A stretch of 64,000 bases of DNA from Candidatus Cloacimonadales bacterium (GCA_963677495.2 CAXXOU010000004.1:480001-544000), one strand, 5' to 3'. Shown: positions 6,823 to 41,639, counted from the first letter of the stretch. The notes: generated from the letters alone by a model not told the origin. Program-made: numbers and translations.

Positions 6823-6832
6823 TATTACTCCT

Positions 6833-7269: not shown

Positions 7270-7289
7270 CTGAGCTCCTTATTATTTAT

Positions 7290-7572: not shown

Positions 7573-7648
7573 CTATATGTTCTTTGTCATATATTTATTG
7601 AATGGGAGCGTGTAACTCGATCACCCCTGATCGAAGCATAAACATATT

Positions 7649-9205: not shown

Positions 9206-9416
9206 CTTCAACTTAAGGAAAAAGGATCCCAACAAAGTTAATCCTGCTTGGAAAGGAATAAGTCTAAAATTAAAATCTTGACACACAAAAAATACGTCTT
9301 AATAATGTATGTATGAATTAGTTGAGTCCGTGCCTTCATTGAAGAGTAATGCTCTCACAGAATGCAGTTTCAACTTTACCAACAACAACCATTTAACCAA
9401 AACTGGAGGAAGTATT

Positions 9417-11084
9417 ATGAAAAAGCTTATCATGTTTTTACCCTTGTTTTTCCTCATCAGCAATGTTCTTACACAATCCAGAGAAGAGTGGATTTGGTCA
9501 GCAACAGCCGGTGGGAGTAACAACGACTGGGGTACAGGTATTGCCATCGATGAAAGTGGCAATAGCTATATAACAGGGACTTTTGAATTAACAGCAAATT
9601 TCGGATCAACGTCTATAACGAGTAACGGCACAAAGGATATCTTTGTTGCAAAACTAGACCCTGAAGGTAACTATCTTTGGTCAACACATGCCGGCGGTAA
9701 CATTGGTGACTGGGCTTATGACATATCTACGGATAATGAAGGTAACAGCTATGTCACAGGAGTGATAACAGGCACAGTCACTTTTGATGCAATAACACTC
9801 GTTTCCAATGGAGGATGGGATATCTTTGTTGCAAAATTAGATTCTCTTGGAAGCTGGGAGTGGGCTATTAATGCAGGAGGAGCTGCTGCAGATCAGGGTC
9901 TGGCAATTGCAACAAACGAAGAAGGAGATTCTTTTGTTACCGGAACTTTCGAAGATAATGCAACTTTTGGGATATTACCATTCACTAGTAATGGATGGGA
10001 TGATATCTTTGTTATGAAAGTTGATACTTGGGGTAATATCATTTGGGTATATCAATGCGGTGGAACCGGTTCAGATGAAGGAACCGGCATCACTGTTGAT
10101 GACAATGATAACTGCTTTTTTACAGGTTCATTCAGCGATACTGCTACTTTTGGACCAACATCCCTGACGAGTGACGGACAGTATGATATCTTCATTAGTA
10201 AAATTGACCAATATGGCAGTTGGCAGTGGACGAATCGTGCCGGAGGGACGGATGATGATTATGGAAGCTGTGTTGATTTAGATAATAGTGGATATTGCTA
10301 CATTGGTGGTGAGTTTGAAGGAACAGCTTCATTTGGACCATACTCTTTAATCAATAGTGGAAACTGGTATGATATTTATGTCGCAAAACTTGATGAATTC
10401 GGTAATTGGGAATGGGCTAACTCAGCTCATGGATCAACACCGGAAGATTGTGAAGCCATTGCTGTTGATAGTAGGGGTAATGCTACTATCACAGGCTATT
10501 TCAACGGTACTTTGGAGTTTGGATCAATAGTCCTTACAGACAGTGATGCTGTTACATTTGATGGTTATATCGCTAAAATCAACAATGCAGGTACCTGGTT
10601 ATGGGCTGAAAGTTTCGGTAACACCAATGGAGAAGATTGCAATGGTGTCGTAATCGATAATTTTGGTTCAAGCTACATAACCGGCTATTTTACAAATACT
10701 TTATCTATCGGTGGAGCGTGGTTAAATAGTCATGGTGGTAGAGACATATTAACTGCCAAGTATGGTTTTCCACCATTAGATAATGATGGAACAGCTTGTG
10801 AACCAAATTCTCTGCATATCAACAGTTATCCAAACCCATTCTGTACAACCAATAAGCTTACTTACAATGTTTCACAGACCGGGAACGTCAAGCTGGAAGT
10901 GTTTAACATGCGTGGACAACTTGTAAAACAGTTATTACATGATTACCAAACTAAGGGTGAACATTCATTAAGCTGGGATGGAATGGACGCAAACGGAAAG
11001 CAGGTTCCATCAGGTTTATATTTCTACAAGATTTCTTTAGATAATGCCATTATGACACATAAAGTAGTTGTTCTAAAAGATTAA
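9417..11084 (+). CDS. secreted SBBP-repeat beta-propeller protein with C-terminal FlgD-Ig/T9SS-like sorting domain
   Basis: GGAGG RBS then MKKLIMFLPLFFLIS signal; repeated D..GNSYITG.F...DIFVAKLD..G..W; SYPNPF...WDG.D.NG..V.SGLYFY. Confidence 0.9.
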   Translation: MKKLIMFLPLFFLISNVLTQSREEWIWSATAGGSNNDWGTGIAIDESGNSYITGTFELTANFGSTSITSNGTKDIFVAKLDPEGNYLWSTHAGGNIGDWAYDISTDNEGNSYVTGVITGTVTFDAITLVSNGGWDIFVAKLDSLGSWEWAINAGGAAADQGLAIATNEEGDSFVTGTFEDNATFGILPFTSNGWDDIFVMKVDTWGNIIWVYQCGGTGSDEGTGITVDDNDNCFFTGSFSDTATFGPTSLTSDGQYDIFISKIDQYGSWQWTNRAGGTDDDYGSCVDLDNSGYCYIGGEFEGTASFGPYSLINSGNWYDIYVAKLDEFGNWEWANSAHGSTPEDCEAIAVDSRGNATITGYFNGTLEFGSIVLTDSDAVTFDGYIAKINNAGTWLWAESFGNTNGEDCNGVVIDNFGSSYITGYFTNTLSIGGAWLNSHGGRDILTAKYGFPPLDNDGTACEPNSLHINSYPNPFCTTNKLTYNVSQTGNVKLEVFNMRGQLVKQLLHDYQTKGEHSLSWDGMDANGKQVPSGLYFYKISLDNAIMTHKVVVLKD

Positions 11085-27645: not shown

Positions 27646-28704
27646 TTATCTATTGGAGTAGTTTGTTTCTATCCATTTCAGATAGTCACCACTTTTAATG
27701 TCATCCATCCACTCTTTGTTGGACAGATACCATTTAATCGTTTTTCTAATGCCTGCAGCGAAATCAACACTTAGTTTAAATCCAAGTTCATCTTTTAACT
27801 TGTCCATATTGATTGCATAACGCCAATCATGACCAGGTCTATCCTTCACATAAGTGATTAATTGTTTGTAATAGTCTTTCTCTTTACCAAGTTCTTCTGC
27901 CATTAGTTCACAAAGGGTATGAACAATGTCAATGTTACGTATTTCGTTCTCTCCACCAATGTTATATGTCTCACCCTGTTTACCTAATTGAATAATATTC
28001 CATATTGCTCTACAATGGTCTTCAACATAAAGCCAATCTCGAACATTGAGTCCTTTACCATAGATAGGAAGAGGTTTCATCTCTAACATATTGTTTATCA
28101 TTACAGGTATGAGTTTCTCAGGGAACTGATAAGGTCCATAATTGTTGGAACAATTTGAGATAGTGACAGGAAGGTTGTATGTGTGGAAATATGCACTTAC
28201 CAAATGATCACTTGCTGCTTTTGAAGCTGAATATGGAGAATGTGGGTCATAGGCCGTAGTTTCATAAAAGAAGCCTTCATCAGTCAGCGAACCATATACT
28301 TCATCAGTTGAAACATGGTGGAAAAGAACATCAGTTCTATCCTTCCATAGCTTTCTGGCACATTCTAAAAGATTGAATGTACCATTGATATTTGTATCTA
28401 TAAATTCTTTTGGTCCTGTAATTGATCTATCCACATGACTCTCAGCAGCAAAATGGACTATTGTGTCAGGATTGTATTTTTCAAACACTTTTTCAAGTGC
28501 ATCGTAGTCTGCAATATCTACTTTTTCAAAATGATAATTATTGGAGTAGTTCTTCTGAATATCATTTAAACTAAGAGGATTCCCTGCATAAGTAAGTTTA
28601 TCAACATTGATAATCTTTATCTCGTCTTTATGTTCTGAAAACAGAAAATGAATGAAATTAGAACCGATAAAACCAGCTCCTCCGGTTATAAGTATAGTCT
28701 TCAT
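27646..28704 (-). CDS. rfbB: dTDP-glucose 4,6-dehydratase
   Basis: TGGAGFIG, AAESHVDRS, STDEVYG, YSASK, NNYGPYQFPEKLIP, DRPGHD. Confidence 0.97.
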   Translation of the reverse strand: MKTILITGGAGFIGSNFIHFLFSEHKDEIKIINVDKLTYAGNPLSLNDIQKNYSNNYHFEKVDIADYDALEKVFEKYNPDTIVHFAAESHVDRSITGPKEFIDTNINGTFNLLECARKLWKDRTDVLFHHVSTDEVYGSLTDEGFFYETTAYDPHSPYSASKAASDHLVSAYFHTYNLPVTISNCSNNYGPYQFPEKLIPVMINNMLEMKPLPIYGKGLNVRDWLYVEDHCRAIWNIIQLGKQGETYNIGGENEIRNIDIVHTLCELMAEELGKEKDYYKQLITYVKDRPGHDWRYAINMDKLKDELGFKLSVDFAAGIRKTIKWYLSNKEWMDDIKSGDYLKWIETNYSNR

Positions 28705-28852
28705 AATACCTCATGTCAGTTTACTTAGTTAACAAGAACAAATATAAAAGATTAAGGGTCAAGTTAAAAAAAGAAGTAGAAACAATTTTCAAAAACAGTC
28801 CCAATATAATGCGGTATATCTTTTTGTTTGTTAACGGAGTTGTTCTTCTCAT

Positions 28853-28951
28853 TTATAATCTTCGGGACTAATAGGGGATCTTAATTGGAATTTGTAGGGA
28901 TTACTCGGGCAAAGTCCCGCGAGATTCGTGCGAAAGTCCCGAGTATTATAA
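28853..28951. repeat. palindromic element related to 25228-25356
   Basis: ttataatcttcgggact...agtcccgagtattataa; shared core ttactcg(a/g)gcaaag(c/t)cccg; near-11-bp spacing of ggga/tcccg. Confidence 0.8.
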
Positions 28952-29370
28952 GGTTGTAATAGAGTAGACGTTAATGAAAAGTATGGCAATTTGGAGAATA
29001 GCACGATTTCAAGAACTAAGAGTATGAGTTTGACACATAATAGTTCAAGTCAACTACCAACCAAACAAATCACTTGACACACTTGCTACAATCGCATAAA
29101 TAGAATGAATTGATGGGGTGTATGATACACCAAAATTAGTTGAAGAGAAGCGATTCTTTTGAAGCAACATAAAAGTTAATAGAGGGTATTCTCTTCATCT
29201 AATCTAACGATGAATGTAAAATGTAATCAAGCGATGAGTTTTTCTTAAAAATGTTAATAATAACGAGATTAGGCTAAGAAATGGATTTTTATAGATTTAA
29301 TCTAGCTTACTTTTACAAAGACTCATACATTTATCACTACAAAACATTGATATACAGACTGTGAGGTATA

Positions 29371-30513
29371 ATGAAGCATCATGAATATAATCAGAACTTT
29401 AAGTTCTTTGTAGAGCCTGTAGAATTTGATAAGAACACAGATAGAGAGTTGTTACAGTATTGTGTAGGAGCTACGCTTTATATGCCGGGGACAAAAGAAA
29501 TATTACACAAAATCATCAACAACAAATTAGATGGATTAACTTCCATGGTTATGTGTTTCGAAGATGCAATACAAGAATCTGACTTACCTTCAGCTGAATG
29601 CAATGTTTTGTATCATTTAGAAGAGTTAGTAAAAGCCATTAATAATGGAGATACAACAATTGATAGGATCCCATTAATCTTTGTACGTGTTAGAAATCCT
29701 CTTCAATTTAAAGAGTTTACAAAGAGATTGTCATCTACTCAAGCAAAGATTCTTTCTGGTTTTGTATTTCCCAAATTCTATAGTAGCAATGCAAAAGAGT
29801 ATTTAGAGCATCTTAAAGATGTTAATGAGAAGTTTCAAACAGTTTTATATGGCATGCCAATTTTTGAAGGAAAAACTCTTGCTTTGAAAGAAACTCGTAT
29901 TGGAGAGTTAATCACTATCTCTAATACCTTGCGTCCTTACAAAGATTTGATACTCAACATAAGGGTTGGAGGAACAGACTTTTCATCAATATTTGGAGTT
30001 AGACGAGGTATCAACTACTCTATTCATGACATTCATACAGTTCGGGATTGTTTGTCTGATATATTGAATGTGTTCACAAGAGATGACAACAATTATGTGG
30101 TCTCAGGTCCGGTTTGGGAATATTTCTTAGCTCATAAGAAAGAGGATTTAAAAGAGCTACTTGAAGAGGACATCCATCGCTCCTTAATGAAGAGGAATAC
30201 TATTCTTAATGAGGCAATTGACGGCTTATTACGAGAAGTCATTTTAGATAAAGCCAATGGGTTTGTTGGTAAAACTATTATTCATCCATCACATCTAAAG
30301 TTTGTTAATGCAATGCAAACAGTTACTAAAGAAGAGTATGAGGATGCAACCCAGATTCTTGGAACAAAGGGTGGCGTAATTAAGAGTAAAAAAGCAAACA
30401 AGATGAATGAGATAAATCCGCATAGGAATTGGGCGAAGAAGATTGTTAATCGTGCGAAGGCTTATGGAGTTATTGAGAGCGAAACAGAATATCTTAAACT
30501 CTGTTTATATTAA
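29371..30513 (+). CDS. HpcH/HpaI-citrate lyase-like TIM-barrel C-C bond lyase (Ter-associated type)
   Basis: GATLYMPG, CFEDAI, FVRVR, FPKF, RVGGTD, SGPVWEYF, LDKANGFVGKTIIHPSH. Confidence 0.88.
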   Translation: MKHHEYNQNFKFFVEPVEFDKNTDRELLQYCVGATLYMPGTKEILHKIINNKLDGLTSMVMCFEDAIQESDLPSAECNVLYHLEELVKAINNGDTTIDRIPLIFVRVRNPLQFKEFTKRLSSTQAKILSGFVFPKFYSSNAKEYLEHLKDVNEKFQTVLYGMPIFEGKTLALKETRIGELITISNTLRPYKDLILNIRVGGTDFSSIFGVRRGINYSIHDIHTVRDCLSDILNVFTRDDNNYVVSGPVWEYFLAHKKEDLKELLEEDIHRSLMKRNTILNEAIDGLLREVILDKANGFVGKTIIHPSHLKFVNAMQTVTKEEYEDATQILGTKGGVIKSKKANKMNEINPHRNWAKKIVNRAKAYGVIESETEYLKLCLY

Positions 30514-30526
30514 AAGAAGGCAGTAA

Positions 30527-31882
30527 TTGTTGAAGGAAAATTTAACGAACAGGTTTATTGATAACCTTTTTCGACTGAAGAAAGAACATATACCGGAAGA
30601 AGTATACACACAAGCTAAGATTTGCTTGATTAGCCATATAGGTTCTGTGTATGCAGGAAAGAGAATACTTGGAAGTAAGATTGATAGGCTTGTTGAAGAC
30701 TTAGATATCGATGCAGGAATGAGCACTATTATTGGTTATAATAAGAAGAACAGTATTCACAATACAGTTCTTCTAAACAGTTTGATGTGTCATGCTTCCG
30801 AGATTGATGATGGTGAACGTTTCGGAATGGTACATCCTGGAGCTACAGTGATCCCGGCAGTTTTAGCAAAAGCAGAGAGTGAGAACTTGAACGGAGTTGA
30901 TATACTCTTTGGGATAATTGTTGGATATGAAGCAGTAATAAGTCTTGCACATATTATGCAACCAGCTCTTAAGCTAAATGGTTATCATGCAACCGGGATT
31001 TGCGGTTCTATTGGTGCTGCAATGGGTGTAGCTTTTAGTCTTGGACTTTCAAATGAAAAGGTGAAAGCTACACTTTCCGCTGCAGGGACTGCATCATCCG
31101 GTTTGTTAGAGACTATTATGGATGGTTCAGATTTAAAACCTTTCAATGCTGCAAACGCTTCTCTTGCTGGATTAATGTCTGTGAATATGGGATTGGCAGG
31201 ATTTGAAGGTCCGAATGATGTTCTTGGAGGAGAAAGAGGATTAGTGAAAAACATCTGTGGAAATAGACATAATGATCTGTTACCTATATCAGAGCAGAAC
31301 TCTTTCAAGATAAACGAAATCTATTTGAAACCTTATGCTGCTTGTCGACATAGTCATTCAGCAATAGATTCTACCCTAAAGATTCTTAGTGACCATGATT
31401 TTGCTTTAAGCGATATAGAGACTATTACTGTTGAGACCTATGATTTAGCAGTTAGAGGTCATGAACATAAATCAATCCCAAACATTAATTCTGCAAAAAT
31501 GAGTATACCATTTAGTATCGCAGTAGCTTTGATTTATGGAAAAGCCGGAGTGCTGGAATTTAGTAAAGAGACCTTAGAGAATAGGGAAATTTATTCTTTA
31601 ATGGATAAAATGACAATAAAAGCAGATGCTGAGTTATCCTCCAGAGTTCCTAAAGAGAGAGGAGCAAGAGTTTTAATTAAGCTTTCTAACAAGGAATCGT
31701 TTAATGCTGAGGTTGTATTACCCAAAGGTGAACCTGAGACACAAATAACATCAGCAGAAATTAATGATTTATTTATTGACCTTTTGATATATGGTGGGAA
31801 AACACTCTCTGAAGCCAAAACGCTTTTGAACTGCATTTGGGATATAGAAAATAGATTCCAAGATTTAATGCATAACCTATAG
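30527..31882 (+). CDS. MmgE/PrpD family protein
   Basis: HASEIDD..HPG, GYHATG, KPYAACRHSH, AKMSIP, PKGEPE. Confidence 0.92.
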   Translation: MLKENLTNRFIDNLFRLKKEHIPEEVYTQAKICLISHIGSVYAGKRILGSKIDRLVEDLDIDAGMSTIIGYNKKNSIHNTVLLNSLMCHASEIDDGERFGMVHPGATVIPAVLAKAESENLNGVDILFGIIVGYEAVISLAHIMQPALKLNGYHATGICGSIGAAMGVAFSLGLSNEKVKATLSAAGTASSGLLETIMDGSDLKPFNAANASLAGLMSVNMGLAGFEGPNDVLGGERGLVKNICGNRHNDLLPISEQNSFKINEIYLKPYAACRHSHSAIDSTLKILSDHDFALSDIETITVETYDLAVRGHEHKSIPNINSAKMSIPFSIAVALIYGKAGVLEFSKETLENREIYSLMDKMTIKADAELSSRVPKERGARVLIKLSNKESFNAEVVLPKGEPETQITSAEINDLFIDLLIYGGKTLSEAKTLLNCIWDIENRFQDLMHNL

Positions 31883-31914
31883 AAATAGATAACTTTAATA
31901 GAAATGGAGGTTAA

Positions 31915-32799
31915 ATGAAACAGACTAGAGATTTCTTAAAGAAAATAGGGCTACCGACCGGTGATTTGTTTAGTATACCAACTTCCGAGAAGAGATTCGA
32001 TGATGGTGGGCAGTATCGCTTTGAAGTACCTGGTATCCAGAATCCCACCTCAATGAAGGCATTGTTAGAAGAAATAGATTCTTTAGATTTAAGTATACAT
32101 AGAGTTACGCAAACCAAGGGCATAATGCTTCTTTCTGATAAAGATATTACTGAAATGGTATCATTGGCAAAGATAGGTAAAGTTGATTTAGTATTATCAA
32201 TTGGTCCAAGAGCAACTTATGATACAAGTGCATCAGTTCACACTGACGAAGGGCAGAGAATGGGTTTGCGACTTAGAGGCCAAGAACAGATAGTCAGAGC
32301 AATTGAAGATGTAAAAAGAGCTAATGCTCTTGGGTGTAATACTTTCTTGCTCTATGATGAAGGTTTGTTATGGGTACTGAATCAGATGCGAGAACTTGGA
32401 GAGTTACCAAAGGCAGTGAATTTCAAGATTTCTGCACATACAGGTCATGGAAATCCATGCTCTTTTAAGTTGCTTGAAAGTTTAGGTGCAAACTCAATAA
32501 ATCCGGTTCGTGATTTACAGATACCGATGCTTTCAGCGCTAAGGCAAGCGATAGATGTACCAATTGATTTACACACAGAGAATCCAAAATCATCAGGTGG
32601 ATTTATACGTCATTATGATGTCCCCGAAATGATTAGAGTAGCTGCACCTATTTACCTCAAAACAGGTGGGTCTGTTGCAAAAACACATGGTTGGGATACA
32701 ACTGTTGCTGAAGCTAAACAAAGAGCTAAACAAGTAGGGCTGGTTAATCGAGTAATTAAACAGTACTATTCAGATGCTATCTATAGCCCTAAAAAGTAG
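31915..32799 (+). CDS. short U32-peptidase-like TIM-barrel protein
   Basis: YRFEVP, DEGLLWVL, FKISAH.GHGNP, GANSINP.RDL, GGFIRHY, APIYLKTG. Confidence 0.75.
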   Translation: MKQTRDFLKKIGLPTGDLFSIPTSEKRFDDGGQYRFEVPGIQNPTSMKALLEEIDSLDLSIHRVTQTKGIMLLSDKDITEMVSLAKIGKVDLVLSIGPRATYDTSASVHTDEGQRMGLRLRGQEQIVRAIEDVKRANALGCNTFLLYDEGLLWVLNQMRELGELPKAVNFKISAHTGHGNPCSFKLLESLGANSINPVRDLQIPMLSALRQAIDVPIDLHTENPKSSGGFIRHYDVPEMIRVAAPIYLKTGGSVAKTHGWDTTVAEAKQRAKQVGLVNRVIKQYYSDAIYSPKK

Positions 32800-32810
32800 T
32801 ATTGGTAAAA

Positions 32811-33779
32811 ATGCCAAATATTTTGTTTACTAACTACTACAAAGGTAGAGCATTAGAGATTATCCGAAGTATTATTCCTTCAGACTATAATGTTTTGCTA
32901 TTATCTAGGCCTGGTAGAGAAGAGATTCTTAAACTTATACCACAGGCAGATTACTTGATTGCCGGTGGGAGGACAAAAGTGGATCACGAACTTCTTAAAA
33001 ATGCAAAAAGGCTAAGAATGGTACAAAGATCAGGTGCCGGTCTGGATAGTATCGATTTGCAGTATCTCCGGCTTTCAGACATACCACTTTACGTAAATAG
33101 AGGTGTTAACGCAAAATCAGTCGCAGAGCACACCGTTTTACTAATATTATCTGTTTTGAGAAAACTTACTCTTTGTGATCATAGTGTTAGAAAAGGTAAA
33201 TGGGAAAAGCATGAACTAGGGTTACAAAGCAGGGATCTAGGCTCAAAATCTGTTGGTTTGATTGGTCTAGGTAAAATTGGTGAACATGTTTCAAAACTAA
33301 TAAGAGCTTTTGGATCAGAAATATTCTATTTTGATATAAAACGTATTCCCAAAGAAGAGGAGCAGAAGCTTAGTATTAGTTATCTGGAGCTGGATGAACT
33401 ATTGAAAAGGTCAGATATTATTAGCCTCCATTGTCCATTAACAGATAATACTTTGAATCTGGTAGATAAAGAGTTTATTGAAAAAATGAAGCAAAACTCG
33501 ATTATTGTTAATACTGCTAGAGGTAAGTTAATTGTTGAAGAAGATCTAGCTCAAGCTTTGATAAGTAATAGAATTAGCGGGGCGGGACTTGATGTGTTTT
33601 ACCAAGAACCAGTTAGTGATACGAATCCCTTTAAAAGCTTAGAGAATGTTATCATGACTCCGCATGTTGGTGGGGTTTCTTATGACTCATTTAGCAAAAT
33701 AATCAGTAGTGCTTTTGAAAACATAAACCTGCATAATCTAGGCAAGGTTCAAGAAATTGAACATAAACGTGTTTATTAA
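32811..33779 (+). CDS. D-isomer-specific 2-hydroxyacid dehydrogenase
   Basis: GLIGLGKIG, SLHCPLT, NTARG, AGLDVF..EP, TPHVGG (alternative TTG start 32802). Confidence 0.93.
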   Translation: MPNILFTNYYKGRALEIIRSIIPSDYNVLLLSRPGREEILKLIPQADYLIAGGRTKVDHELLKNAKRLRMVQRSGAGLDSIDLQYLRLSDIPLYVNRGVNAKSVAEHTVLLILSVLRKLTLCDHSVRKGKWEKHELGLQSRDLGSKSVGLIGLGKIGEHVSKLIRAFGSEIFYFDIKRIPKEEEQKLSISYLELDELLKRSDIISLHCPLTDNTLNLVDKEFIEKMKQNSIIVNTARGKLIVEEDLAQALISNRISGAGLDVFYQEPVSDTNPFKSLENVIMTPHVGGVSYDSFSKIISSAFENINLHNLGKVQEIEHKRVY

Positions 33780-33798
33780 ACATATGTAGAGATAAATA

Positions 33799-35022
33799 AT
33801 GAAAACAAAAAAAGCGTTGGTACTCGCTGGCGTCAGTGCTCATATACCATTACTCAGAGACTTAAGAAAAAGAGGGTATTATACAATATTAGTTGATTAC
33901 TTCAAGCATCCTCCTGCACGTGATTACTGTGATGAACATATTCAGGAAAGTACACTTGATATGGACCTTGTTTTGGAAGTTGCAAAGCAGAAACAAGTCG
34001 ATCTTGTTGTAACAACCAATATGGATCAAGCAAATGTTACAGCCTGCTATGTCTCTGAAAAACTAAATCTACCCAAGCCGTATTCATATGCTACTGCACT
34101 CAATGTTACTAACAAGGGGTTAATGAAAAGAATAATGGTCGAGAACCAGATACCAACTCCCAAACATGCCTATGTGACAAACTTAAATGAGTTTGATTTC
34201 AATGACATGTCCTTTCCTTTGGTGGTTAAACCTGCGGATAGTAATGGTTCTAAAGGTGTAAAGCGTGTTGAGAACGTCCAACAATTGAGGTCAGGATTGG
34301 CAGAAGCTCTTGAGATAAGTAGAACAAACCAGGGAATCATTGAGGAGTTCATAAATGGAGTTGAGATTCAAATTGATTGCTTTGTTAGGAATGGTTCGGT
34401 TGAAGTTCTAATGACCAAAGAGAGAAGAAACTTGTACACACCAGAAGGTTCGGTATTACAAACTATTGGCTCAACTGTACCCGCAGAGTTAACAGTAAAG
34501 CTACAACAACAGATTCAGCATATCGCAGATAGTATTGCTTTTGCATTTAAACTAGATAATACACCTCTTTTCATCCAAGCGATTATCAAATATGACGATA
34601 TTTATGTCCTAGAATTTGCACCTAGGATTGGTGGAGGATTAAGTAATAAGATGATCGAAATTCATACTGGTATCAACATTGTACATGAATCAGTGAATTC
34701 ATTACTAAAGTCTGAATCGAGTTTCGAAGTTATGTATCCAAAGACAAATTTGATGACATATTTGATTTATGCTAAACCAGGAGTATTCTCATCTATCGCA
34801 GGTGGTGATGAATTAATAGAAAGTGGTGTTATAAAAGACTTTTATACATATAAAACTACGGGCATGAGTATTGGGGCTGACTTAAGGAGTAGTGATAGAG
34901 TTGGAGCTTTTATCGTAGTTGGTGAAAATCAAAAAGAGATGGAAGAGAAAGTTAAGATTGCAAAAAAGACTTTAGAAGTATTGAATTCAGATGGTGAAAA
35001 CATCATGTATAATGATTTTTAG
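33799..35022 (+). CDS. ATP-grasp domain ligase
   Basis: TNKGLMK, FPLVVKPADSNGSKGV, IIEEFING.E, LEFAPRIGG. Confidence 0.9.
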   Translation: MKTKKALVLAGVSAHIPLLRDLRKRGYYTILVDYFKHPPARDYCDEHIQESTLDMDLVLEVAKQKQVDLVVTTNMDQANVTACYVSEKLNLPKPYSYATALNVTNKGLMKRIMVENQIPTPKHAYVTNLNEFDFNDMSFPLVVKPADSNGSKGVKRVENVQQLRSGLAEALEISRTNQGIIEEFINGVEIQIDCFVRNGSVEVLMTKERRNLYTPEGSVLQTIGSTVPAELTVKLQQQIQHIADSIAFAFKLDNTPLFIQAIIKYDDIYVLEFAPRIGGGLSNKMIEIHTGINIVHESVNSLLKSESSFEVMYPKTNLMTYLIYAKPGVFSSIAGGDELIESGVIKDFYTYKTTGMSIGADLRSSDRVGAFIVVGENQKEMEEKVKIAKKTLEVLNSDGENIMYNDF

Positions 35023-35035
35023 TAGAGAGGTAAAG

Positions 35036-35776
35036 ATGTCCAATATTAGCAATTCATCAATTGTAATTGAGTCAGATATCAGCGAAAAGGCAAAAGTTTT
35101 TAATCATGCAGAGATAAAGAAAAGTAAGATATTAGAAGGGGCTTCTATCGGCGATTATGCAATGATAGTTGAATCTACAATCAATAGATATGCATCTATA
35201 AACCGTAGGAACTACATATTTAAATCGACACTTGGAGAGTTTACATATACAGGATTAAACACCATGATTATATCAACAAATATTGGAAAGTATTGCTCCT
35301 TAAGCTGGAATATCTCGATTGGTGGTGGTAATCACGACTATAAAAATGTCACCTCTTATCCCCATTGGAGATTCAATACAATGATGAAAGGAATTGTTAA
35401 CCACAACGATAACAAATTCATCAAGAAACGATTGATGAAAATTGGGACTACTGAAATTGGTAATGATGTATGGATTGGAACAGGTGCAATAATTTTTCGG
35501 GGAGTGAAGATAGGTCATGGAGCAATTATTGGTGCCGGAGCAGTAGTTACGAAAGATGTAGAACCATATGCAATCATAACTGGAGTTCCAGGTAGAGAAA
35601 TTAAACGTCGCTTTAGTGATGAGCAGATAAAAAGATTATTGAAGATAGAATGGTGGTATTGGCCAAACAGCCTTATTGAGGAACATTCTGAAATCATTTT
35701 TACTAACCAAGTTAATGATGATGTTCTAAGTAAGATGGAAGCAATTTCGAAACAATTATTGATAGGAACAGAGTAA
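35036..35776 (+). CDS. hexapeptide-repeat (CatB/Vat-like) acetyltransferase
   Basis: IGKYCS, GGGNH, IGNDVWIG.GA.I..GV.IGHGAIIGAGAVVTKDV.PY, WW; GAGG RBS before ATG 35036. Confidence 0.9.
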   Translation: MSNISNSSIVIESDISEKAKVFNHAEIKKSKILEGASIGDYAMIVESTINRYASINRRNYIFKSTLGEFTYTGLNTMIISTNIGKYCSLSWNISIGGGNHDYKNVTSYPHWRFNTMMKGIVNHNDNKFIKKRLMKIGTTEIGNDVWIGTGAIIFRGVKIGHGAIIGAGAVVTKDVEPYAIITGVPGREIKRRFSDEQIKRLLKIEWWYWPNSLIEEHSEIIFTNQVNDDVLSKMEAISKQLLIGTE

Positions 35777-35777
35777 C

Positions 35778-36290
35778 ATGAAAGAAGTTAAGAAAATCAA
35801 CATGCCTATAAGTCAGGAACAGGTCAATGAGTTAGAAGTAGGGGATTTTATCGAGTTAACCGGGTACATCTTTACGGGACGTGATGCTGCTCTTCCTAAA
35901 CTTGTTGAACTCATCGAGAAGGATGCATTAGAAGATCTGAATCTTGAAGGATCAGCTATCTTCCATACAGCTGTTAGTGCTGCTGGAATAGGTCCCACAT
36001 CAAGTAACAAGTTTGAGATAGAAAGTTCTATCCCAGCTTTATCGAAAGCTGGAGTGAAGATTCATATTGGTAAAGGAGAACTACGTTCTACAACTATTGA
36101 TGAACTCAAAAGAAATGGTTCTATCTACGCAATAACTCCTCCACTGTCTGCGTTACTAACTAGTAAAGCTAAATCCATTGAAGTCGTAGCTTTTCCGGAT
36201 GAAGGTATAGAAGCCCTTCACAAATTATACGTTGAGAACTTTCCAATCGTTATCGCTGCTGCTCATGGCAGGATCATGAAAGATTGTTAA
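35778..36290 (+). CDS. Fe-S hydro-lyase (fumarate hydratase/tartrate dehydratase) beta subunit, divergent
   Basis: LEVGDFIELTGYIFTGRDAA, GPTSS, IGKG, GIEALHKLYVENFP. Confidence 0.85.
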   Translation: MKEVKKINMPISQEQVNELEVGDFIELTGYIFTGRDAALPKLVELIEKDALEDLNLEGSAIFHTAVSAAGIGPTSSNKFEIESSIPALSKAGVKIHIGKGELRSTTIDELKRNGSIYAITPPLSALLTSKAKSIEVVAFPDEGIEALHKLYVENFPIVIAAAHGRIMKDC

Positions 36291-36302
36291 ATGGAGGAAA
36301 AC

Positions 36303-37148
36303 ATGAACTCAGTCATTGAAAAAGTTGCAAAAGGCGTGATTGACGCTTCAACGAAATATACTGATGAGCATAAACAAGCTCTAAGGGACTATATGGTGAA
36401 AGAAAGGTGTTCTCATGCAAAATGGATGATTGAAAAGATTTTAGAGAATGCTGAGATTGCAGAAAAAGAGAAGAAACCGCTTTGTGATGACACTGGCATT
36501 CCTCAGTTGATTCTTGAAGTCGGAAAAAATAGACAGATTACAGGCCGAATTCTTGAAGATATTCAGAATGGAATAGCTGAAGGGTTGCGTATGCTTCCAG
36601 GCAGACCGATGGCAGTTTTAGGAAATGATATTGAGAGAGTAGAACAGACGGCAGGATTATCGGAAGACTCAGGTCAGTTAAAACCAGCTCCAATGATAAT
36701 AAAGTATATAGATGGAGATTTGATTAAGTTGCATATACTCTTACAAGGTGGGGGACCTGAAATAAGAGGGAAAACTTTCAGAATTTTCCATAAACGTTCT
36801 ATTGATACTGTACTGGAAGAAGTACTAACTTGGGCAAAAGAAGGAGCTGCATTGTTAGGTTGTACTCCTTGTGTTCCATTTATTGGTATTGGTAGAACTC
36901 ATTCTGAAGCTACTTCTTTGATGCTGGAAGCAATGGTGAAATCTGATTTCAGCGTACAAAATGAATATGAGAAGATGTTCACTAATAAGTTGAATGAAAC
37001 TAATATCGGCCCACTAGGAATTGGGGGGGACACTACTGCTATTGCAACATTTATTAATATAGGGAACCAACGTGCAAGCGGAGTAAGAATAGTTTCTTTG
37101 CGATTGAATTGCATTGTTGAACCAAGACGAGCAACTGTTTTATTATAG
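36303..37148 (+). CDS. Fe-S hydro-lyase alpha subunit, divergent
   Basis: PLCDDTG, GGGPE, GCTP, NIGPLGIGG, LNC; GGAGG RBS favours ATG 36303 over 36291. Confidence 0.85.
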   Translation: MNSVIEKVAKGVIDASTKYTDEHKQALRDYMVKERCSHAKWMIEKILENAEIAEKEKKPLCDDTGIPQLILEVGKNRQITGRILEDIQNGIAEGLRMLPGRPMAVLGNDIERVEQTAGLSEDSGQLKPAPMIIKYIDGDLIKLHILLQGGGPEIRGKTFRIFHKRSIDTVLEEVLTWAKEGAALLGCTPCVPFIGIGRTHSEATSLMLEAMVKSDFSVQNEYEKMFTNKLNETNIGPLGIGGDTTAIATFINIGNQRASGVRIVSLRLNCIVEPRRATVLL

Positions 37149-37164
37149 ATTAGGATTAAAAACT

Positions 37165-38091
37165 GTGAAATACTCTAATGTAATACCTGTTTATAACTCA
37201 GAAAAGTCATTACCTGAGTTATGTGAAAGAATAAAAAATGTATATGAAACAACAGTGAATGCAGATTATGAAATTATTCTTGTAAATGATTGTTCAAAGG
37301 ATAACTCATGGAAAGTTCTTAAGGAACTACATGAAAAGTATGATAAGGTAAAAGCAATTAATCTATCAAAGAACTCAGGTCAACATTCAGCTACCCAGTG
37401 TGGATTTAAATATTGTACTGGTGATTATGTTGTTATTCTTGATGATGATTTACAAAATCCACCAGAAGAGATTCCCAAACTTATTAATCATATACTAGAG
37501 AACGAAGATATTGATGTAGTAATTGGGACATATATATCTAAGCAACACTCTATAGTTAGAAACATAGGAACCAAGCTGATGAAAGTCTTCAGTTCTATTA
37601 TGTTTAAAACAGATGGTAAACTGAAGTTTACAACTTTTCGAATAGTAAGAGGAAGCATTGCTAAAGAGATTTCCGGAATTAGGATAGCAAGACCTGGTAT
37701 AGGTAGTATGATTAGGGCTACAACTAGTAGGATTTCATCAGTAATGGTCGAGCATAAGGAGAGAAAGTTTGGACGTAGTGGCTATTCATTTAATAGACTT
37801 GTTAAAAGATTCTTTAATAATATTTTTGATAACTCCATATTACCTTTAAAGTTTATCAGCTTCTTAGGAGTCTTCTTTGCTTTCCTAGGATTGGGTTATG
37901 CAGGCTACTTAGTAGTAAGATACTTTTTACATGGTTCTTCTATAAAGGGATGGACATCATTAATGGTGATGGTAACTTTTTTTTCAGGAACGATATTGTT
38001 TACTCTAGGTATAGTTGGTGAATATCTTCTTAGAATACTGATTGAAACTAGAAAACTACCCACTCATCTTGAAAGAGAGAAGTTGTTATAA
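37165..38091 (+). CDS. GT2 polyprenyl-phosphate glycosyltransferase (GtrB/ArnC-like)
   Basis: IPVYNSE, VNDCSKD, NSGQH, DDDLQNPPE, R.FG.SGY, two C-terminal TM helices ending GIVGEY. Confidence 0.92.
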   Translation: MKYSNVIPVYNSEKSLPELCERIKNVYETTVNADYEIILVNDCSKDNSWKVLKELHEKYDKVKAINLSKNSGQHSATQCGFKYCTGDYVVILDDDLQNPPEEIPKLINHILENEDIDVVIGTYISKQHSIVRNIGTKLMKVFSSIMFKTDGKLKFTTFRIVRGSIAKEISGIRIARPGIGSMIRATTSRISSVMVEHKERKFGRSGYSFNRLVKRFFNNIFDNSILPLKFISFLGVFFAFLGLGYAGYLVVRYFLHGSSIKGWTSLMVMVTFFSGTILFTLGIVGEYLLRILIETRKLPTHLEREKLL

Positions 38092-39086
38092 TGCAATTAA
38101 AACTGAGTAAAAATCTATTCAAGTCTAAAGGATTTAAGACATTAGTAAATATTATTGTCTTTCTAATCTGTGTCTTATTTCTCTTCTTGAACATTGATTT
38201 TAGTAGAGTTTATGAACAATTAAAACATGTTTACCTACCAATATATGGTGTTACAATTTGCATCTCTCTATTCAGAACATGGTTAGCAGGAATGAGATGG
38301 AAAAATATGCATCCTGATCATGATTCTCAACTCAGCAACTGGTCATATTTCAGACTTACAATGATCTCACACCTTTTCAATAAGATAATGCCTGGAGCTC
38401 TTGGGGGAGATTTCGTCAAGACTCTATATGCAATAAAGGAGAAGAAGGGAAGTGGGATTAAAAATGTTATTGCAGTTGTTATTGATCGAGTCATTGGATT
38501 GATATCGATTTTTATTTTTGGACTTATTGCTCTTATGTTTTCTAGTCAACAGTTAGACATCCAATTATGGAAGATAATACTCGTTTTTTTATTTTTCACT
38601 GGATGTATGTACGCAGCTTTCAACAGAAGAGTATTGGATTTTATAGAAGTGATTTCACAGAAAGTAAACATTAAACATGTTTGGATAAAAAGTATTTTGG
38701 ACAACTGGAGGCAATCAATATCGTTTTATGTAGAGAATAAAGGAAGAGTATTTAAATCATTATTGTTGTGCGTTCCAATACACTTTGCATCATTTGTTAT
38801 TTTCTTTCTGTTTAGTAGAAGTATTGGGATGGAAGTAGGTTTTACAGATGTGATTTTTGTTGTAACAATAATGTGGTTAATTACTGCTCTACCTATTAGC
38901 ATTGGAGGTATGGGAGTTAGAGAACTATCCTTTGTGTGGCTTTTCAGCCTTTACAATATATCTTCAGAACAAGCTATAGCCTTATCATTTCTCTGGTATA
39001 TCAATACATTAGTAATGTCAGTAATATCATTACCTCTATTGTTTGATCTAAAGAAGAGAAAAAAAGTTCTTCCAGAATCTGTTTAG
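38091..39086 (+). CDS. lysylphosphatidylglycerol-synthase-TM (flippase-like) membrane protein
   Basis: RW, FNKIMPGALGGD, DRVIGL, LPISIGGMGVRE. Confidence 0.9.
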   Translation: MQLKLSKNLFKSKGFKTLVNIIVFLICVLFLFLNIDFSRVYEQLKHVYLPIYGVTICISLFRTWLAGMRWKNMHPDHDSQLSNWSYFRLTMISHLFNKIMPGALGGDFVKTLYAIKEKKGSGIKNVIAVVIDRVIGLISIFIFGLIALMFSSQQLDIQLWKIILVFLFFTGCMYAAFNRRVLDFIEVISQKVNIKHVWIKSILDNWRQSISFYVENKGRVFKSLLLCVPIHFASFVIFFLFSRSIGMEVGFTDVIFVVTIMWLITALPISIGGMGVRELSFVWLFSLYNISSEQAIALSFLWYINTLVMSVISLPLLFDLKKRKKVLPESV

Positions 39087-39248
39087 TTAAGTATTCGAGG
39101 ACAAGACCAATAGGTATCTATTCACATTCTATCAATCCAAAAATCTTTGAAAATCATCTGGTTTTCCTAATTCTTGATTTGCGAAATCCTTCATTATAAC
39201 TATACTTTAGTTGACATACTTAAAAATACTACATGGATGAATTATAAT

Positions 39249-41639
39249 ATGCAACATAACAAAGCTTTCTTGAGAAGGATTTTCCTTATTTTCATTGTTT
39301 CCTTAATTGTTACTATCTCACTACAACATTTTAACTTTAGGAGGAATTTTAAAGCCTGGGTTGACTTCAAGACTAACAGTACAATTAAAACGATGGAGAT
39401 TATTGATGATGATTTCTCAACAGCTTCTTCTGACTTTATAAGAGTTGTCAATAGGGATGCCTTGATAACGAAGATCGTTAATGATGCATCTTATCACCAT
39501 AAGGTATCAACTAAATTATTGGATAATATCAAGACTAAATTGATTACTGATGATATAACAGAATGGATTCGATCTCAAGACGAAAGCTATACTTTCGTAA
39601 ACTCCTTTGTCGAGAGTCAGAAACTTCATGATTTAGTCAGAGATAATGACGAGATATTAAAACTTGTTAAAGAAAACAAAAGATCTCAGATCCAGTTAAA
39701 TGCATATAGACAAAAACTGTTTAGAAAACTTTCTCCATTTTATCGCTTAAGCCATACGCTAACTATGGATCAGGTTAGAGTTTTGTTTGATGATGGTTCT
39801 GTTTTGGTTACAATTGATAATCAAGACAGCTTTAACTCTCTGAATAACTCTTTTGGTTATCTGAGTGAAGTGAAGGGAATTGATTCACTTAATTGCAATA
39901 GTGAGCTTTTTCTCAAAGCAAAAGATAATAATCATTTTGCTTTGCGTCAGATCGTTCCACTCCATCAAAATAGTAGTGTAGTTGGTAGTGTCGAGTGTAA
40001 CAAAGGTTTGTTTAGTGTTGAAGAGTTACTTGAAAAACAGGAAAGCTCAAGCAACGAATATCTATGGCTAAAAAACAATATTTTGGTAGATACAGAAAAT
40101 GAGGGTCAATCTATAAAAACGTTGTTTAATGATAGTTTCACACTTTTTGATAATGCTGATAGCCAGGAAGGTGATGTTAAGCTTATGGCATCATCTATTG
40201 AGCAGGTATACTACACTCAGATTCGTGATAAGTTTTACAAACTCAGACCATTTAGTACAAAGCTGTCAAAAGACGGTATTTCAATGTTTGCTCTTTTTCT
40301 CCCAATACTTGATTCCGATAATAATCATTTCGGATTTTTCATTAGATCGATTGATGGTGATTACTATAATGTAATGGTTACAAAGCGAAATGTTACAACT
40401 TTACTTACTGTTGTATTCGTTGCATCTGTGTTAATGCTAATCTATTTCATTCAGTGCAGAAGAACTGAAAAAGGACGTGTAAATCAAGCCTTAGGAACTG
40501 TTACTGAAAAATTGTTAGAAGGCTTGTTTGTGATCAACAGAAACGGAACAATACGTTTTGCTAATAAAGCCGGTACTCTTTTCTTTGGAATGAAGAAAGA
40601 AGATATCATTGGAATTAAAGTAGAGAACTTGCTAAAGAAGATAACCTTTGAAGGCTCAGACAACTGGGACACAATTATCGCAAATATTGATAAGAGTGGC
40701 TACTATACAAATGATGAATGCATTATTAAACTTGATAATGTCACTATCGCTGTTAGCTTAATGGGTATCTACATTGCTCCTCAAGAGGAGATTATTCATG
40801 ATTTCCAGGATAGCATTGTTCTTATGGTGAATGATATTACTCATCACAAATTGTATGAGCGTCAACTGCTTAGAGCTAAAGAGGAAGCAGAAGTTAATGA
40901 TAGACTTAAGTCAACTTTCCTTAATAACTTCTCTCATGAAATTAGAACTCCGCTTAATTCAATCGTTGGATTCTCATACCTAATGAAGAATGAGGAGACA
41001 CCTAAAGAGACCGTTGAGAGGTATGTCGATATCATACATACAAACTCAGATTATCTTCTGCGAGTCGTTCAAAATATTATTGAGATATCTCAACTGGAAC
41101 AGGATGAATACAAGCTTTATCCTGATGAATTCAGTATTAATGCAATGATGAAAGAATTGTTTAATGATGTAGAGAGTACAATTAAAAACTCAAGAAAACC
41201 GATAAAACTTATATGCAAAACAGGTCTTGAAGATGATCAAGATCACACATTCAGCGATGCAAAGAGACTTAGAGCGGTTCTGGAACACTTGCTTGATAAT
41301 GCTGTTAAATTTACTGAATTAGGGCATATTGAGTTTGGTTATCAGGTTCATGATAACGACAACTTACTTTTCTGGGTAAAAGACACAGGCATAGGAATTG
41401 ATTCTTCAGAACAGTATAAGATATTCAAGCCTTTCTACCAGATTAAGGATGGTAACCATATAAAGTTCTCCGGAACTGGATTAGGACTATCCATTGCCTC
41501 AAGAGTAGTTCAGCTGATGGGTGGAAACATTTGGGTTAAATCTGAATATACCCAGGGTACAACAATGTATTTTGCTATCCCATTCATCACTAGAAACAGT
41601 ATTGATGATGAATTGGCAATGCTGGGAATTGAGGAATAG
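39249..41639 (+). CDS. membrane sensor histidine kinase with PAS domain
   Basis: two TM segments, PAS (GLFVINRNGTIRFAN), FSHEIRTPLNSI, LLDNAVKFT, DTGIGI, GTGLGL; start uncertain (39174-39249). Confidence 0.92.
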   Translation: MQHNKAFLRRIFLIFIVSLIVTISLQHFNFRRNFKAWVDFKTNSTIKTMEIIDDDFSTASSDFIRVVNRDALITKIVNDASYHHKVSTKLLDNIKTKLITDDITEWIRSQDESYTFVNSFVESQKLHDLVRDNDEILKLVKENKRSQIQLNAYRQKLFRKLSPFYRLSHTLTMDQVRVLFDDGSVLVTIDNQDSFNSLNNSFGYLSEVKGIDSLNCNSELFLKAKDNNHFALRQIVPLHQNSSVVGSVECNKGLFSVEELLEKQESSSNEYLWLKNNILVDTENEGQSIKTLFNDSFTLFDNADSQEGDVKLMASSIEQVYYTQIRDKFYKLRPFSTKLSKDGISMFALFLPILDSDNNHFGFFIRSIDGDYYNVMVTKRNVTTLLTVVFVASVLMLIYFIQCRRTEKGRVNQALGTVTEKLLEGLFVINRNGTIRFANKAGTLFFGMKKEDIIGIKVENLLKKITFEGSDNWDTIIANIDKSGYYTNDECIIKLDNVTIAVSLMGIYIAPQEEIIHDFQDSIVLMVNDITHHKLYERQLLRAKEEAEVNDRLKSTFLNNFSHEIRTPLNSIVGFSYLMKNEETPKETVERYVDIIHTNSDYLLRVVQNIIEISQLEQDEYKLYPDEFSINAMMKELFNDVESTIKNSRKPIKLICKTGLEDDQDHTFSDAKRLRAVLEHLLDNAVKFTELGHIEFGYQVHDNDNLLFWVKDTGIGIDSSEQYKIFKPFYQIKDGNHIKFSGTGLGLSIASRVVQLMGGNIWVKSEYTQGTTMYFAIPFITRNSIDDELAMLGIEE

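Follow-up and report, generated by a model that had tools for sequence, protein, structure and literature searches.

What does a bacterium make with an operon in which genes of organic-acid chemistry run directly into genes for loading sugars on lipid carriers? The question is raised by a ten-gene operon in a 64,000-nt stretch of DNA from a Candidatus Cloacimonadales bacterium (GCA_963677495.2 CAXXOU010000004.1:480001-544000), referred to here as the window, which belongs to a genome that is 99.5% complete (G000). The most likely role of the operon is to build an uncommon acid for attachment to an amino sugar at the cell surface.

The list of open reading frames (ORFs) for positions 29371-39086 contained ten contiguous genes (g1 to g10), all on the + strand and touching or overlapping, with spacings from a 35-base overlap to a 32-base gap, as had been described in an earlier note made from this sequence. 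The overlaps include 35 bases between g8 and g9 and one base between g9 and g10. Domains were called from Pfam and NCBIfam profile scores, compared with the cut-offs of the models, and these calls agreed with the domains named in that note; for g3 the agreement with a U32-like barrel was at the level of the fold, from a protein atlas and an AlphaFold (AF2) model. The genes and their predicted roles are as follows.

29371..30513, + strand: g1, a CitE/malyl-CoA lyase/malate-synthase-like TIM barrel (PF15617 C-C_Bond_Lyase, 387.5 bits), predicted condensing enzyme for an acyl-CoA and a 2-oxoacid
30527..31882, + strand: g2, MmgE/PrpD family (N domain 137.5 bits, C domain 112.4 bits), predicted dehydratase of a citrate-like adduct
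31915..32799, + strand: g3, a 294-aa U32/CutC-like TIM barrel (no Pfam family; protein atlas and AF2 model), predicted C-C lyase or decarboxylase releasing a 2-oxoacid
32802..33779, + strand: g4, a D-isomer-specific 2-hydroxyacid dehydrogenase (D-2-HADH), PGDH/McyI/glyoxylate-reductase-like (Pfam 198.2 bits)
33799..35022, + strand: g5, an ATP-grasp ligase of the L-amino-acid-ligase kind (ATP-grasp_4, Dala_Dala_lig_C, LAL_C2), predicted coupler of the acid to the amino sugar
34991..35776, + strand: g6, a hexapeptide-repeat acyltransferase, xenobiotic-acetyltransferase-like (Hexapep; TIGR03308 150.8 bits, cut-off 201.65)
35778..36290, + strand: g7, an Fe-S hydro-lyase beta subunit of the FumA C-terminus/TtdB family (Fumerase_C 79.7 bits, TIGR00723 88.3 bits)
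36291..37148, + strand: g8, an Fe-S hydro-lyase alpha subunit (Fumerase 173.9 bits; TIGR00722 113.9 bits, above the cut-off of 100.65), predicted hydratase of an aconitate-like intermediate
37114..38091, + strand: g9, a family 2 glycosyltransferase (GT2) of the ArnC/GtrB/PgfS kind (Glycos_transf_2 115.5 bits), predicted polyprenyl-phosphate sugar transferase
38091..39086, + strand: g10, an LPG_synthase_TM/flippase-like polytopic membrane protein (PF03706 152 bits, cut-off 33.4; TIGR00374 76.6 bits, cut-off 43.2), predicted flippase of the lipid-linked sugar

The gene set is not a chance neighbourhood, since its core recurs together across 35 other loci: L003 in a Clostridiales metagenome-assembled genome (MAG), L006 and L007 in a pair of genomes belonging to the same order, and 32 metagenome contigs identified by a search with g3. 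Gene presence and identity in these loci were read from a tblastn matrix. The conserved core comprises six genes, namely the CitE-like g1, the MmgE/PrpD protein g2, the TIM barrel g3, the ATP-grasp g5 and the hydro-lyase pair g7 and g8 (hydB and hydA), together with one variable step. Both g1 and g3 were found in 30 of the 35 loci and were direct neighbours in 24; two of the five loci without the pair are contigs shorter than 1.4 kb, and the other three (L017, L032 and L034) show no g1 in the sequence examined. A PrpD protein, an ATP-grasp, hydB and hydA accompany g1 and g3 wherever the contig is long enough. The most conserved gene was g3, with 65-83% identity across the loci, compared with 58-72% for orthologs of g1, 45-60% for those of g7 and g8 and 28-45% for PrpD; orthologs of g5 at 41-50% identity were found in 16 loci. 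The ten genes had been proposed as a single unit, which the comparison did not bear out: g6 has a counterpart in one of the 35 loci, g9 in one at close range and in another (L020) at 29% identity, and g10 in none. The conserved unit is therefore the six-gene core with its variable step, here called the cassette, while g6, g9 and g10 are window-specific add-ons.

Pfam annotation of 172 flanking proteins in 18 of these loci placed 17 of them in polysaccharide loci, with markers such as Wzx/Polysacc_synt, DegT, GT1/GT2, Bac_transf, Wzz/Wza, UpxY-like NusG, RmlA-D and pyruvyl transferases. The co-conservation of the acid genes with glycan genes was thus as predicted, and an occurrence mainly with transporters in catabolic loci, which the earlier note had named as the finding that would overturn its reading, was seen in one locus of the 18, L032. 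The commonest order was Wzx, DegT, g3, g1, (aldo-keto reductase), PrpD, (phosphonopyruvate decarboxylase-like or Ldh_2), ATP-grasp, hydB, hydA and GT2. A DegT sugar aminotransferase homolog was present in 19 of the 35 loci, directly upstream of g3 in 13 of them. The L032 locus (562-8117) lies in a transporter context, with two DUF3100 membrane proteins, a PrpD protein (28% identity to g2), g3 (65%), hydA (48%), a nitroreductase and, in place of g1, a 264-aa protein with a citrate-synthase C-terminal domain; V-type ATPase genes adjoin it. Possibly this locus puts the same chemistry to use in catabolism or salvage. In the earlier note's overall interpretation, therefore, the link to glycans stands, although the ten genes are not a conserved unit and most related loci are of the Wzx/Wzy type.

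Schlafen AlbA_2 genes with HATPase_c_4 were also observed as insertions inside the cassette (L010:5546-6904 and L010:14517-15854; also L017:754-2133), in one case separating DegT from g3 and in another hydB from hydA, with the neighbouring ORFs intact.

The cassette is widespread, although few genomes of this phylum carry it. At E <= 1e-20 the C-C lyase was found in 3 of 232 genomes of the phylum, G000 included, and it was absent from 11 other genomes of the family (three of the same genus and eight others), where the sole match was one of 49 residues at 20 bits. Because the cassette is missing from those 11 genomes and present in 2 of the 231 other genomes searched in the phylum, the operon was probably acquired horizontally. 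In a large protein collection 5448 C-C lyase matches were obtained at E <= 0.001, the best 119 others being 64-72% identical to g1, with Pedobacter, Flavobacterium and Bacteroidales among their named sources; the related loci derive from fermentation and other metagenomes. More distant g3 homologs without cassette partners were found on plasmids of Thermomicrobium (42% identity) and Enterobacter (33%). A literature search restricted to articles without their supplements found no published description of the gene set, in agreement with the earlier note, which knew of no characterised pathway with it; passages of PMC2147049 deal with the ordinary methylcitrate pathway and are irrelevant to this gene set.

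A candidate route to an amino sugar was found in the same genome. The operon is divergent from rfbB, as noted before, and a genome-wide profile search showed that this rfbB is the only dTDP-glucose 4,6-dehydratase gene above cut-off in G000. The remaining genes map to a second contig.

27646..28704, - strand: rfbB/rmlB, dTDP-glucose 4,6-dehydratase (TIGR01181, 474.8 bits against a cut-off of 365.1)
28705..29370, no strand: divergent spacer of 666 bases, AT-rich (32% G+C), presumed promoter region of rfbB and the operon
Contig 2, L055:7074-11540, - strand: four-gene operon of a WecE-like transaminase, a two-domain NDP-hexose 2,3-dehydratase, a GFO-family reductase and rmlA

In this contig 2 operon, rmlA (420 bits) is the only one of the genome, and the scores are 435.6 bits for the 2,3-dehydratase and 458.9 bits (cut-off 375) for the WecE-like transaminase. 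By the logic of deoxysugar biosynthesis RmlA, RmlB, a 2,3-dehydratase, a 3-ketoreductase and a transaminase would together yield dTDP-4-amino-2,4,6-trideoxyhexose. The contig 2 operon is a predicted route to a 2,6-dideoxy amino sugar, of a kind seldom met beyond antibiotic producers, and since rmlC was not found in G000, there is no rhamnose route. The aminotransferase that the earlier note had reported as missing is indeed not in the window, but it is located elsewhere in the genome, next to rmlA, the 2,3-dehydratase and the ketoreductase. In G119, another genome that carries the cassette, the same four functions lie directly upstream of it. As evidence that the ATP-grasp ligase has an amino sugar for its partner, this is circumstantial but specific. 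The contig 2 operon is flanked by FG-GAP proteins that carry signals for sorting by type IX secretion.

The AF2 model of g1 had a mean predicted local distance difference test score (pLDDT) of 76.6, with most of the first ~200 residues above 85 and three later stretches below 50. Its nearest solved structures were human CLYBL (Z 23.2, 280 residues aligned, root-mean-square deviation 3.4) and malyl-CoA lyases (Z 22.7 and 22.5), followed by an acyl-CoA lyase beta subunit (Z 20.3), malate synthase H (Z 20.1) and CitE (Z 18.1), with RipC also among the matches. The next kinds, pyruvate kinases (Z ~14) and HpcH aldolases (Z ~13), scored well under these acyl-CoA Claisen enzymes. The motif GKTIIHPSH is invariant or nearly so among 27 sequences, and it corresponds to K-x-x-I-H-P near the C-terminus, which we take to be the signature of CitE, malyl-CoA lyase and CLYBL; both the fold and the motif place g1 in this family, with a predicted dependence on CoA. 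Residues 283-332 gave weak matches to the RipC and CitE models of NCBIfam, and no PDB sequence match was obtained at E <= 0.1. The PF15617 family was reportedly defined in a study of the Ter operon. A role of g1 as a novel phosphoenolpyruvate (PEP) mutase was also considered and was dropped, since the fold search gave CitE/malyl-CoA-lyase-like proteins and not isocitrate lyase (ICL)/PEP-mutase-like ones.

The nearest solved proteins to g2 by sequence were the Bacillus subtilis IRG1 homolog 7bra (2.3e-28) and IDS epimerase, and its scores against the PrpD equivalog models were 27.8-37.5 bits, with cut-offs of 458-950. The hydro-lyase pair is of the class I (Fe-S) kind, with an alpha and a beta subunit and three cysteine ligands, C65, C191 and C274 of g8, which are invariant in 14 sequences; g8 also matched the PDB sequence 7xky (2e-20), and all fumarase and tartrate dehydratase equivalogs scored g7 and g8 under cut-off. 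In two loci (L008:8138-10515 and L030:11251-13686) the pair is replaced by a Lyase_1/ADSL_C protein and a PF04199 'cyclase' hydrolase. The Lyase_1 protein is about equally similar to 3-carboxymuconate cycloisomerase, adenylosuccinate lyase and the coenzyme M enzyme XcbD, all below cut-off. These two genes look like a non-orthologous, oxygen-tolerant substitute for the hydration step. Acting in sequence, a cycloisomerase-like Lyase_1 protein and a hydrolase would form and open a lactone, for a net hydration that needs an aconitate-like tricarboxylate as substrate.

The remaining core gene, g3, gave no Pfam family (E <= 0.001), no NCBIfam match and no PDB sequence match (E <= 1). In the protein atlas, clusters named 'U32 peptidase' scored 0.97-0.99, and 15-18% of the members of its atlas neighbours bear that name. 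The AF2 model is a TIM barrel with a pLDDT of 94.4, for which CutC (Z 15.9), the U32 protein Mk0906 (Z 15.2) and class II aldolases (Z 14.9) were tied as structural matches, none standing out. S24, E37, G140 and R210 are invariant, and no conserved cysteine was present among 42 aligned sequences. The PF01136 family includes the Fe-S hydroxylases UbiU/UbiV, RlhA and TrhP; since g3 has neither a PF01136 match nor a conserved cysteine, it is not an Fe-S enzyme of the UbiU/RlhA type, and its likeness to the U32 peptidases is one of fold only. A predicted complex of g1 and g3 returned 'no answer' with a score of 0.00 in two runs, which speaks neither for nor against an interaction.

Between the other core enzymes and the ligase lies a swappable step on a 2-oxoacid, for which three mutually exclusive forms were found. 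The first is the D-2-HADH form of this window, shared by six other loci (orthologs of g4 at 45-47% identity); g4 matched the PDB sequences of PGDH 1wwk (2.6e-51), McyI (1.3e-45) and glyoxylate/hydroxypyruvate reductases. The second, in five loci, is an Ldh_2 protein with L-sulfolactate dehydrogenase as its best NCBIfam match (302 bits, cut-off 500). The third, in 14 loci, combines an aldo-keto reductase (AKR) with a thiamine pyrophosphate (TPP) enzyme of ~380 aa; in four of the 14 the contig ends after the AKR, which is then the only gene visible, and both genes are present wherever the contig reaches. Ten loci are too short or undetermined for this step. The TPP enzyme passes the phosphonopyruvate decarboxylase (Ppd) equivalog TIGR03297 (409.9 bits, cut-off 312.5) and is 40-44% identical to a Ppd adjoining a PEP mutase in the genome G232. 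Presumably all three forms act on 2-oxoacids, the D-2-HADH and Ldh_2 forms reducing the oxo group to opposite stereoisomers. The TPP enzyme with the AKR would remove C1 and reduce the aldehyde, giving a product that is one carbon shorter and ends in an alcohol. The simplest reading is that the core supplies one 2-oxoacid, which the variable step diversifies.

The nearest PDB sequences to the ligase g5 were 4dim (3.1e-20) and the L-amino-acid ligase 3vot (6e-18). In five loci (L003, L008, L016, L029 and L036) an ATP-grasp of the g5 type is missing, and the cassette is instead preceded by distant ATP-grasps, either one or two, with 23-28% identity. ATPgrasp_ST genes were also seen in several loci, and a Mur-ligase-like gene in L036; together with the distant ATP-grasps, these genes suggest longer, acyl-peptide-like decorations. 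The acyltransferase g6, an accessory gene outside the conserved cassette, also scored against CatB (119.5 bits) and Vat (118.3 bits).

For g9 the best NCBIfam match was ArnC, at 169.8 bits against a cut-off of 529, so it is not ArnC itself; PgfS (130.1 bits) was also below cut-off. Two C-terminal hydrophobic segments were found at 240-263 and 280-303, the putative counterparts of the paired helices that end polyprenyl-phosphate GT2s. The g10 protein has at least six hydrophobic segments and, as a polytopic PF03706 protein, belongs with the MprF-type flippase domains. A different GT2 occupies the place directly after hydA in other loci, and in five relatives the GT2s at other places are only 27-32% identical to g9. 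By analogy with the Arn and Gtr systems, the decorated sugar is likely loaded on polyprenyl phosphate in this organism and used outside the cytoplasm. A shared GT-C enzyme was looked for in L055:8909-10405 and L006:2059-3483, and this candidate was rejected: the two genes have no similarity, and that of L055 is the NDP-hexose 2,3-dehydratase.

The model that we prefer, to which we give an even chance, is a route to a 2-oxoacid that resembles the methylcitrate cycle, followed by reduction, ligation to a dTDP-amino-deoxyhexose and export on polyprenyl phosphate. The methylcitrate cycle (PrpC, PrpD, AcnB or AcnD/PrpF, and PrpB) condenses, dehydrates, rehydrates and splits its substrate with a TIM-barrel enzyme, giving a 2-oxoacid without the use of a dehydrogenase. 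In the operon, g1 would condense an acyl-CoA with oxaloacetate or another 2-oxoacid, g2 would dehydrate the citrate-like adduct, g7 and g8 would rehydrate it to an isocitrate-like acid, and g3 would split this acid, again freeing a 2-oxoacid without a dehydrogenase. The splitting step was assigned to g3 because it is the only core gene left for it. This logic fits because of the fold of g1, the PrpD family of g2, the cysteines of g8, the substitution seen in L008 and L030 and the citrate-synthase-like protein in L032; we hold the assignment of these roles to the core genes tentatively, at even chances or slightly below. That g3 could be a new kind of alkyl-isocitrate lyase in a methylcitrate-like biosynthetic module appears possible to us, somewhat short of an even chance, and is likelier than a phosphonate or sulfonate reading. 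In this window g4 would then reduce the oxo group to a D-2-hydroxy acid, which g5 would join by an amide bond to the dTDP-amino-deoxyhexose that RmlB and the contig 2 operon would make, probably a 4-amino-2,4,6-trideoxyhexose. A free hydroxyl may be acylated by g6, possibly as an O-acetylation. The sugar would be moved to polyprenyl phosphate by g9 and flipped by g10, and a GT-C enzyme, not among the genes found, would place it on lipopolysaccharide (LPS), another glycan or a protein.

Several observations weigh against this model. The closest relatives of g2 are IRG1 decarboxylase homologs and IDS epimerase, with PrpD further off, so that its reaction may be a decarboxylation or isomerisation in place of a dehydration. 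The lyase role of g3 is a guess that fills the single empty step, as no structural relative stands out. The main difficulty comes from the decarboxylase form of the variable step: its product would lack the C1 carboxylate, so that an amide formed through the acid would need a second carboxylate, and the obvious donors of one, succinyl-CoA and glutaryl-CoA, lead back to central metabolites. At the export end, a g6 homolog (40% identity) at the same position occurs only in L019, the one close relative of g9 (61% identity, directly after hydA) is in L006 of genome G041, with the weak match in L020, and g10 has no counterpart in any of the 35 loci; near the operon there is no GT-C gene, and the single PMT_2 match of the genome (27 bits) is in a glycan locus on contig 3. 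The aminotransferase lies outside the window and is tied to the operon by being part of the only dTDP-hexose route of the genome. A scan for promoter-like sites counted 53, compared with 53.1 in shuffled sequences, and one for terminator-like sites counted 6, compared with 5.5, so neither did better than the shuffles and no promoter was assigned in 28705-29370. Finally, L032 has PrpD, g3 and hydA together with DUF3100 membrane proteins and no glycan gene.

Chain elongation of the LeuA/LeuCD/LeuB type, an unlikely reading, is the first of the alternatives. Here g1 would add acetyl-CoA to a 2-oxoacid, g2 with g7 and g8 would isomerise the hydroxy acid, the variable dehydrogenase would oxidise it, g3 would be a beta-keto-acid decarboxylase, and the elongated oxo or hydroxy dicarboxylate would be ligated to the sugar. 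The order of synthase, dehydratase, hydratase and dehydrogenase agrees with the gene content, and the Foldseek list of g3 includes the carboxyltransferase domains of oxaloacetate decarboxylase, pyruvate carboxylase and transcarboxylase 5S, with isopropylmalate and homocitrate synthases at Z 13-14 in a wide structural search. The solved relative of g4, McyI, presumably oxidises 3-methylmalate, which is a further point for elongation. However, the TPP decarboxylase and AKR of 14 loci fit decarboxylation followed by reduction of the aldehyde better than an oxidation; elongation would end in a 2-oxoacid or aldehyde with no finishing enzyme, and g3 is without the conserved histidines expected of DRE-TIM metal sites.

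The roles of acid and acceptor could also be exchanged, as in VanH and VanA: the hydroxy acid or alcohol would be the nucleophile, and the ATP-grasp would esterify it to a carboxylate, either of a uronic acid or of an amino acid borne by the sugar. We regard this as improbable, although it would account for the three variants all ending in a free hydroxyl, even the decarboxylase form that loses the C1 carboxylate. Matches of g4 to VanH (122.6 bits) and of g5 to a D-Ala-D-Lac ligase (35.9 bits), both far under cut-off, the extra ATP-grasps and ATPgrasp_ST of several loci and a UDP-glucose dehydrogenase in L003 point the same way. The constant neighbour of the cassette is, however, a sugar aminotransferase (19 of 35 loci, 13 directly upstream) and not a uronic-acid gene, the partner pathway in this genome makes an amino sugar, and orthologs of g5 would need to accept D-hydroxy, L-hydroxy and primary-alcohol nucleophiles.

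Very improbable, in our view, is a cassette that leads without PEP mutase to a phosphonopyruvate-like or sulfopyruvate-like 2-oxoacid, and so to a phosphonate or sulfonate. It is suggested by the TPP enzyme, which scores above the Ppd equivalog cut-off in genomes where PEP mutase is lacking and is 40-44% identical to the Ppd of G232, by the likeness of Ldh_2 to L-sulfolactate dehydrogenase (302 bits), of g4 to PGDH and of g6 to TIGR03308 (150.8 bits), and by the three alternative enzymes, which mirror known early branch points of phosphonate pathways. In passages of PMC8942020, Ppd and a VlpB-type dehydrogenase are given as branch points of phosphonate biosynthesis, and malate dehydrogenase and fumarase, with ATP-grasps adjoining, are predicted to act on phosphonopyruvate analogues. 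Against it, no PEP mutase (PF13714) above cut-off was found in G000, G041 or G119, the best score in G000 being 23 bits against 31.5, and among the 172 flanking proteins of 18 loci none was assigned by Pfam to PEP mutase or an LicD-type transferase, while a cytidylyltransferase-like domain occurred only once, in L023. Structurally g1 is CitE/malyl-CoA-lyase-like and not ICL/PEP-mutase-like, and PrpD and the hydratase point to carboxylates; to our knowledge, no known chemistry ties these enzymes to the formation of C-P or C-S bonds. No TPP enzyme, and hence no Ppd, was among the domains of the window. In G232, a Clostridiales MAG carrying the cassette, a canonical Ppd beside a PEP-mutase-family gene (a 669-aa open frame) was observed on a contig other than that of the cassette (contig C36, L070:8875-11916), from which it follows that this organism makes ordinary phosphonates separately.

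Ordinary organic-acid catabolism or anaplerosis beside an unrelated pair of GT2 and membrane-protein genes is likewise a very improbable reading, despite L032, with its PrpD, g3, hydA, citrate-synthase-like gene, DUF3100 proteins and no glycan gene, the distant g3 homologs (33-42%) in non-glycan contexts on the Thermomicrobium and Enterobacter plasmids and the lack of co-conservation of g9 and g10, since 17 of the 18 annotated loci are glycan loci, the window has neither a transporter nor a regulator of acid catabolism, the cassette includes an ATP-grasp ligase, and the genes overlap from g8 to g9 and from g9 to g10, with a glycosyltransferase directly after hydA in other loci too.

Downstream of the operon one further gene was found on the same strand.

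39174..41639, + strand: PAS sensor histidine kinase, 821 aa (HisKA, HATPase_c, PAS_9), starting 87 bases 3' of g10

No response regulator adjoins this kinase, which may be co-transcribed with the operon. Elsewhere in the window (9309-11084 and 19688-22132), and also in L055:2619-7014, proteins with Por_Secre_tail or FlgD_ig C-terminal sorting domains of type IX secretion were found, including an M14 carboxypeptidase; these domains place the organism in the Fibrobacteres-Chlorobi-Bacteroidetes (FCB)-type bacteria. Comparison with the same-genus genome G001 showed only spoT (86% identity) in common over the 20 kb compared.

Serotype, phage receptors and immune recognition depend on the non-sugar groups that decorate capsules and O-antigens, and for most of these groups no genes are known. 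Three exchangeable forms of the variable step would yield three related decorations from one core, a ready-made variation of surface chemistry. Identification of the product would annotate thousands of genes and could explain unassigned acyl groups in published glycan structures. The cassette also holds g3, an enzyme that is 80% conserved, and, on the preferred model, a methylcitrate-like logic built anew from other enzyme families; were the phosphonate reading true, phosphonates or sulfonates from new C-P or C-S chemistry would decorate the surface glycans of many phyla.

Among known systems, the methylcitrate cycle is similar in the order of chemistry of the proposed route, but only the PrpD family is common to both. 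The g2 protein is far under every PrpD equivalog cut-off, g1 is CitE/CLYBL-like with no Citrate_synt domain in the operon (L032 alone has a protein with a citrate-synthase C-terminal domain), the hydratase is a two-subunit Fe-S enzyme of the FumA/TtdAB type and not an aconitase, and g3 is U32/CutC-like, an analogue of PrpB by position only, in a genome with no PF13714 protein above cut-off. The setting of the cassette is also biosynthetic, within glycan loci.

In the Arn pathway (ArnB, ArnA, ArnC, ArnE/F and ArnT) a 4-amino sugar nucleotide is N-acylated, transferred by a GT2 to undecaprenyl phosphate, flipped and attached outside. Its ArnC, a GT2 with C-terminal membrane helices, is the best NCBIfam match of g9. 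The sugar route found here is, however, dTDP-based (RmlA/RmlB) and not based on UDP-glucuronic acid, flipping would fall to an MprF-type PF03706 protein in place of ArnE/F, the operon has no ArnT-like neighbour, and the acyl group would be a purpose-built acid in place of formate.

The early branch points of phosphonate pathways (Ppd with an alcohol dehydrogenase, or a VlpB-type reductase), as described in passages of PMC8942020, are similar in that their 3-substituted pyruvate either loses a carboxylate before its reduction or is reduced directly to the 2-hydroxy acid, with ATP-grasps nearby. They differ in that the core enzymes here are carboxylate enzymes and that PEP mutase is absent from three carrier genomes and from 18 loci. 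With VanH-VanA the operon shares a D-2-HADH gene (g4) directly before an ATP-grasp gene (g5), but the scores are 122.6 against a cut-off of 540 for g4 and 35.9 against 550 for g5, g5 is of the LAL_C2 type, and the two genes lie in a glycan locus instead of serving to remodel peptidoglycan.

A counterpart on the side of the product is the perosamine of Vibrio cholerae O1, in which a small hydroxy acid, 3-deoxy-L-glycero-tetronic acid, is amide-linked to a 4-amino-4,6-dideoxyhexose. The route to sugars of this type passes through a 4-keto-6-deoxy intermediate and relies on a DegT-type transaminase. In V. cholerae the acyl group is supplied with the help of an acyl carrier protein, an AMP-ligase and reductases, and CitE-like, PrpD, Fe-S hydratase, U32-like and ATP-grasp proteins like those of the cassette are not known to take part. 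The cassette belongs among the pathways for non-sugar substituents in polysaccharide loci.

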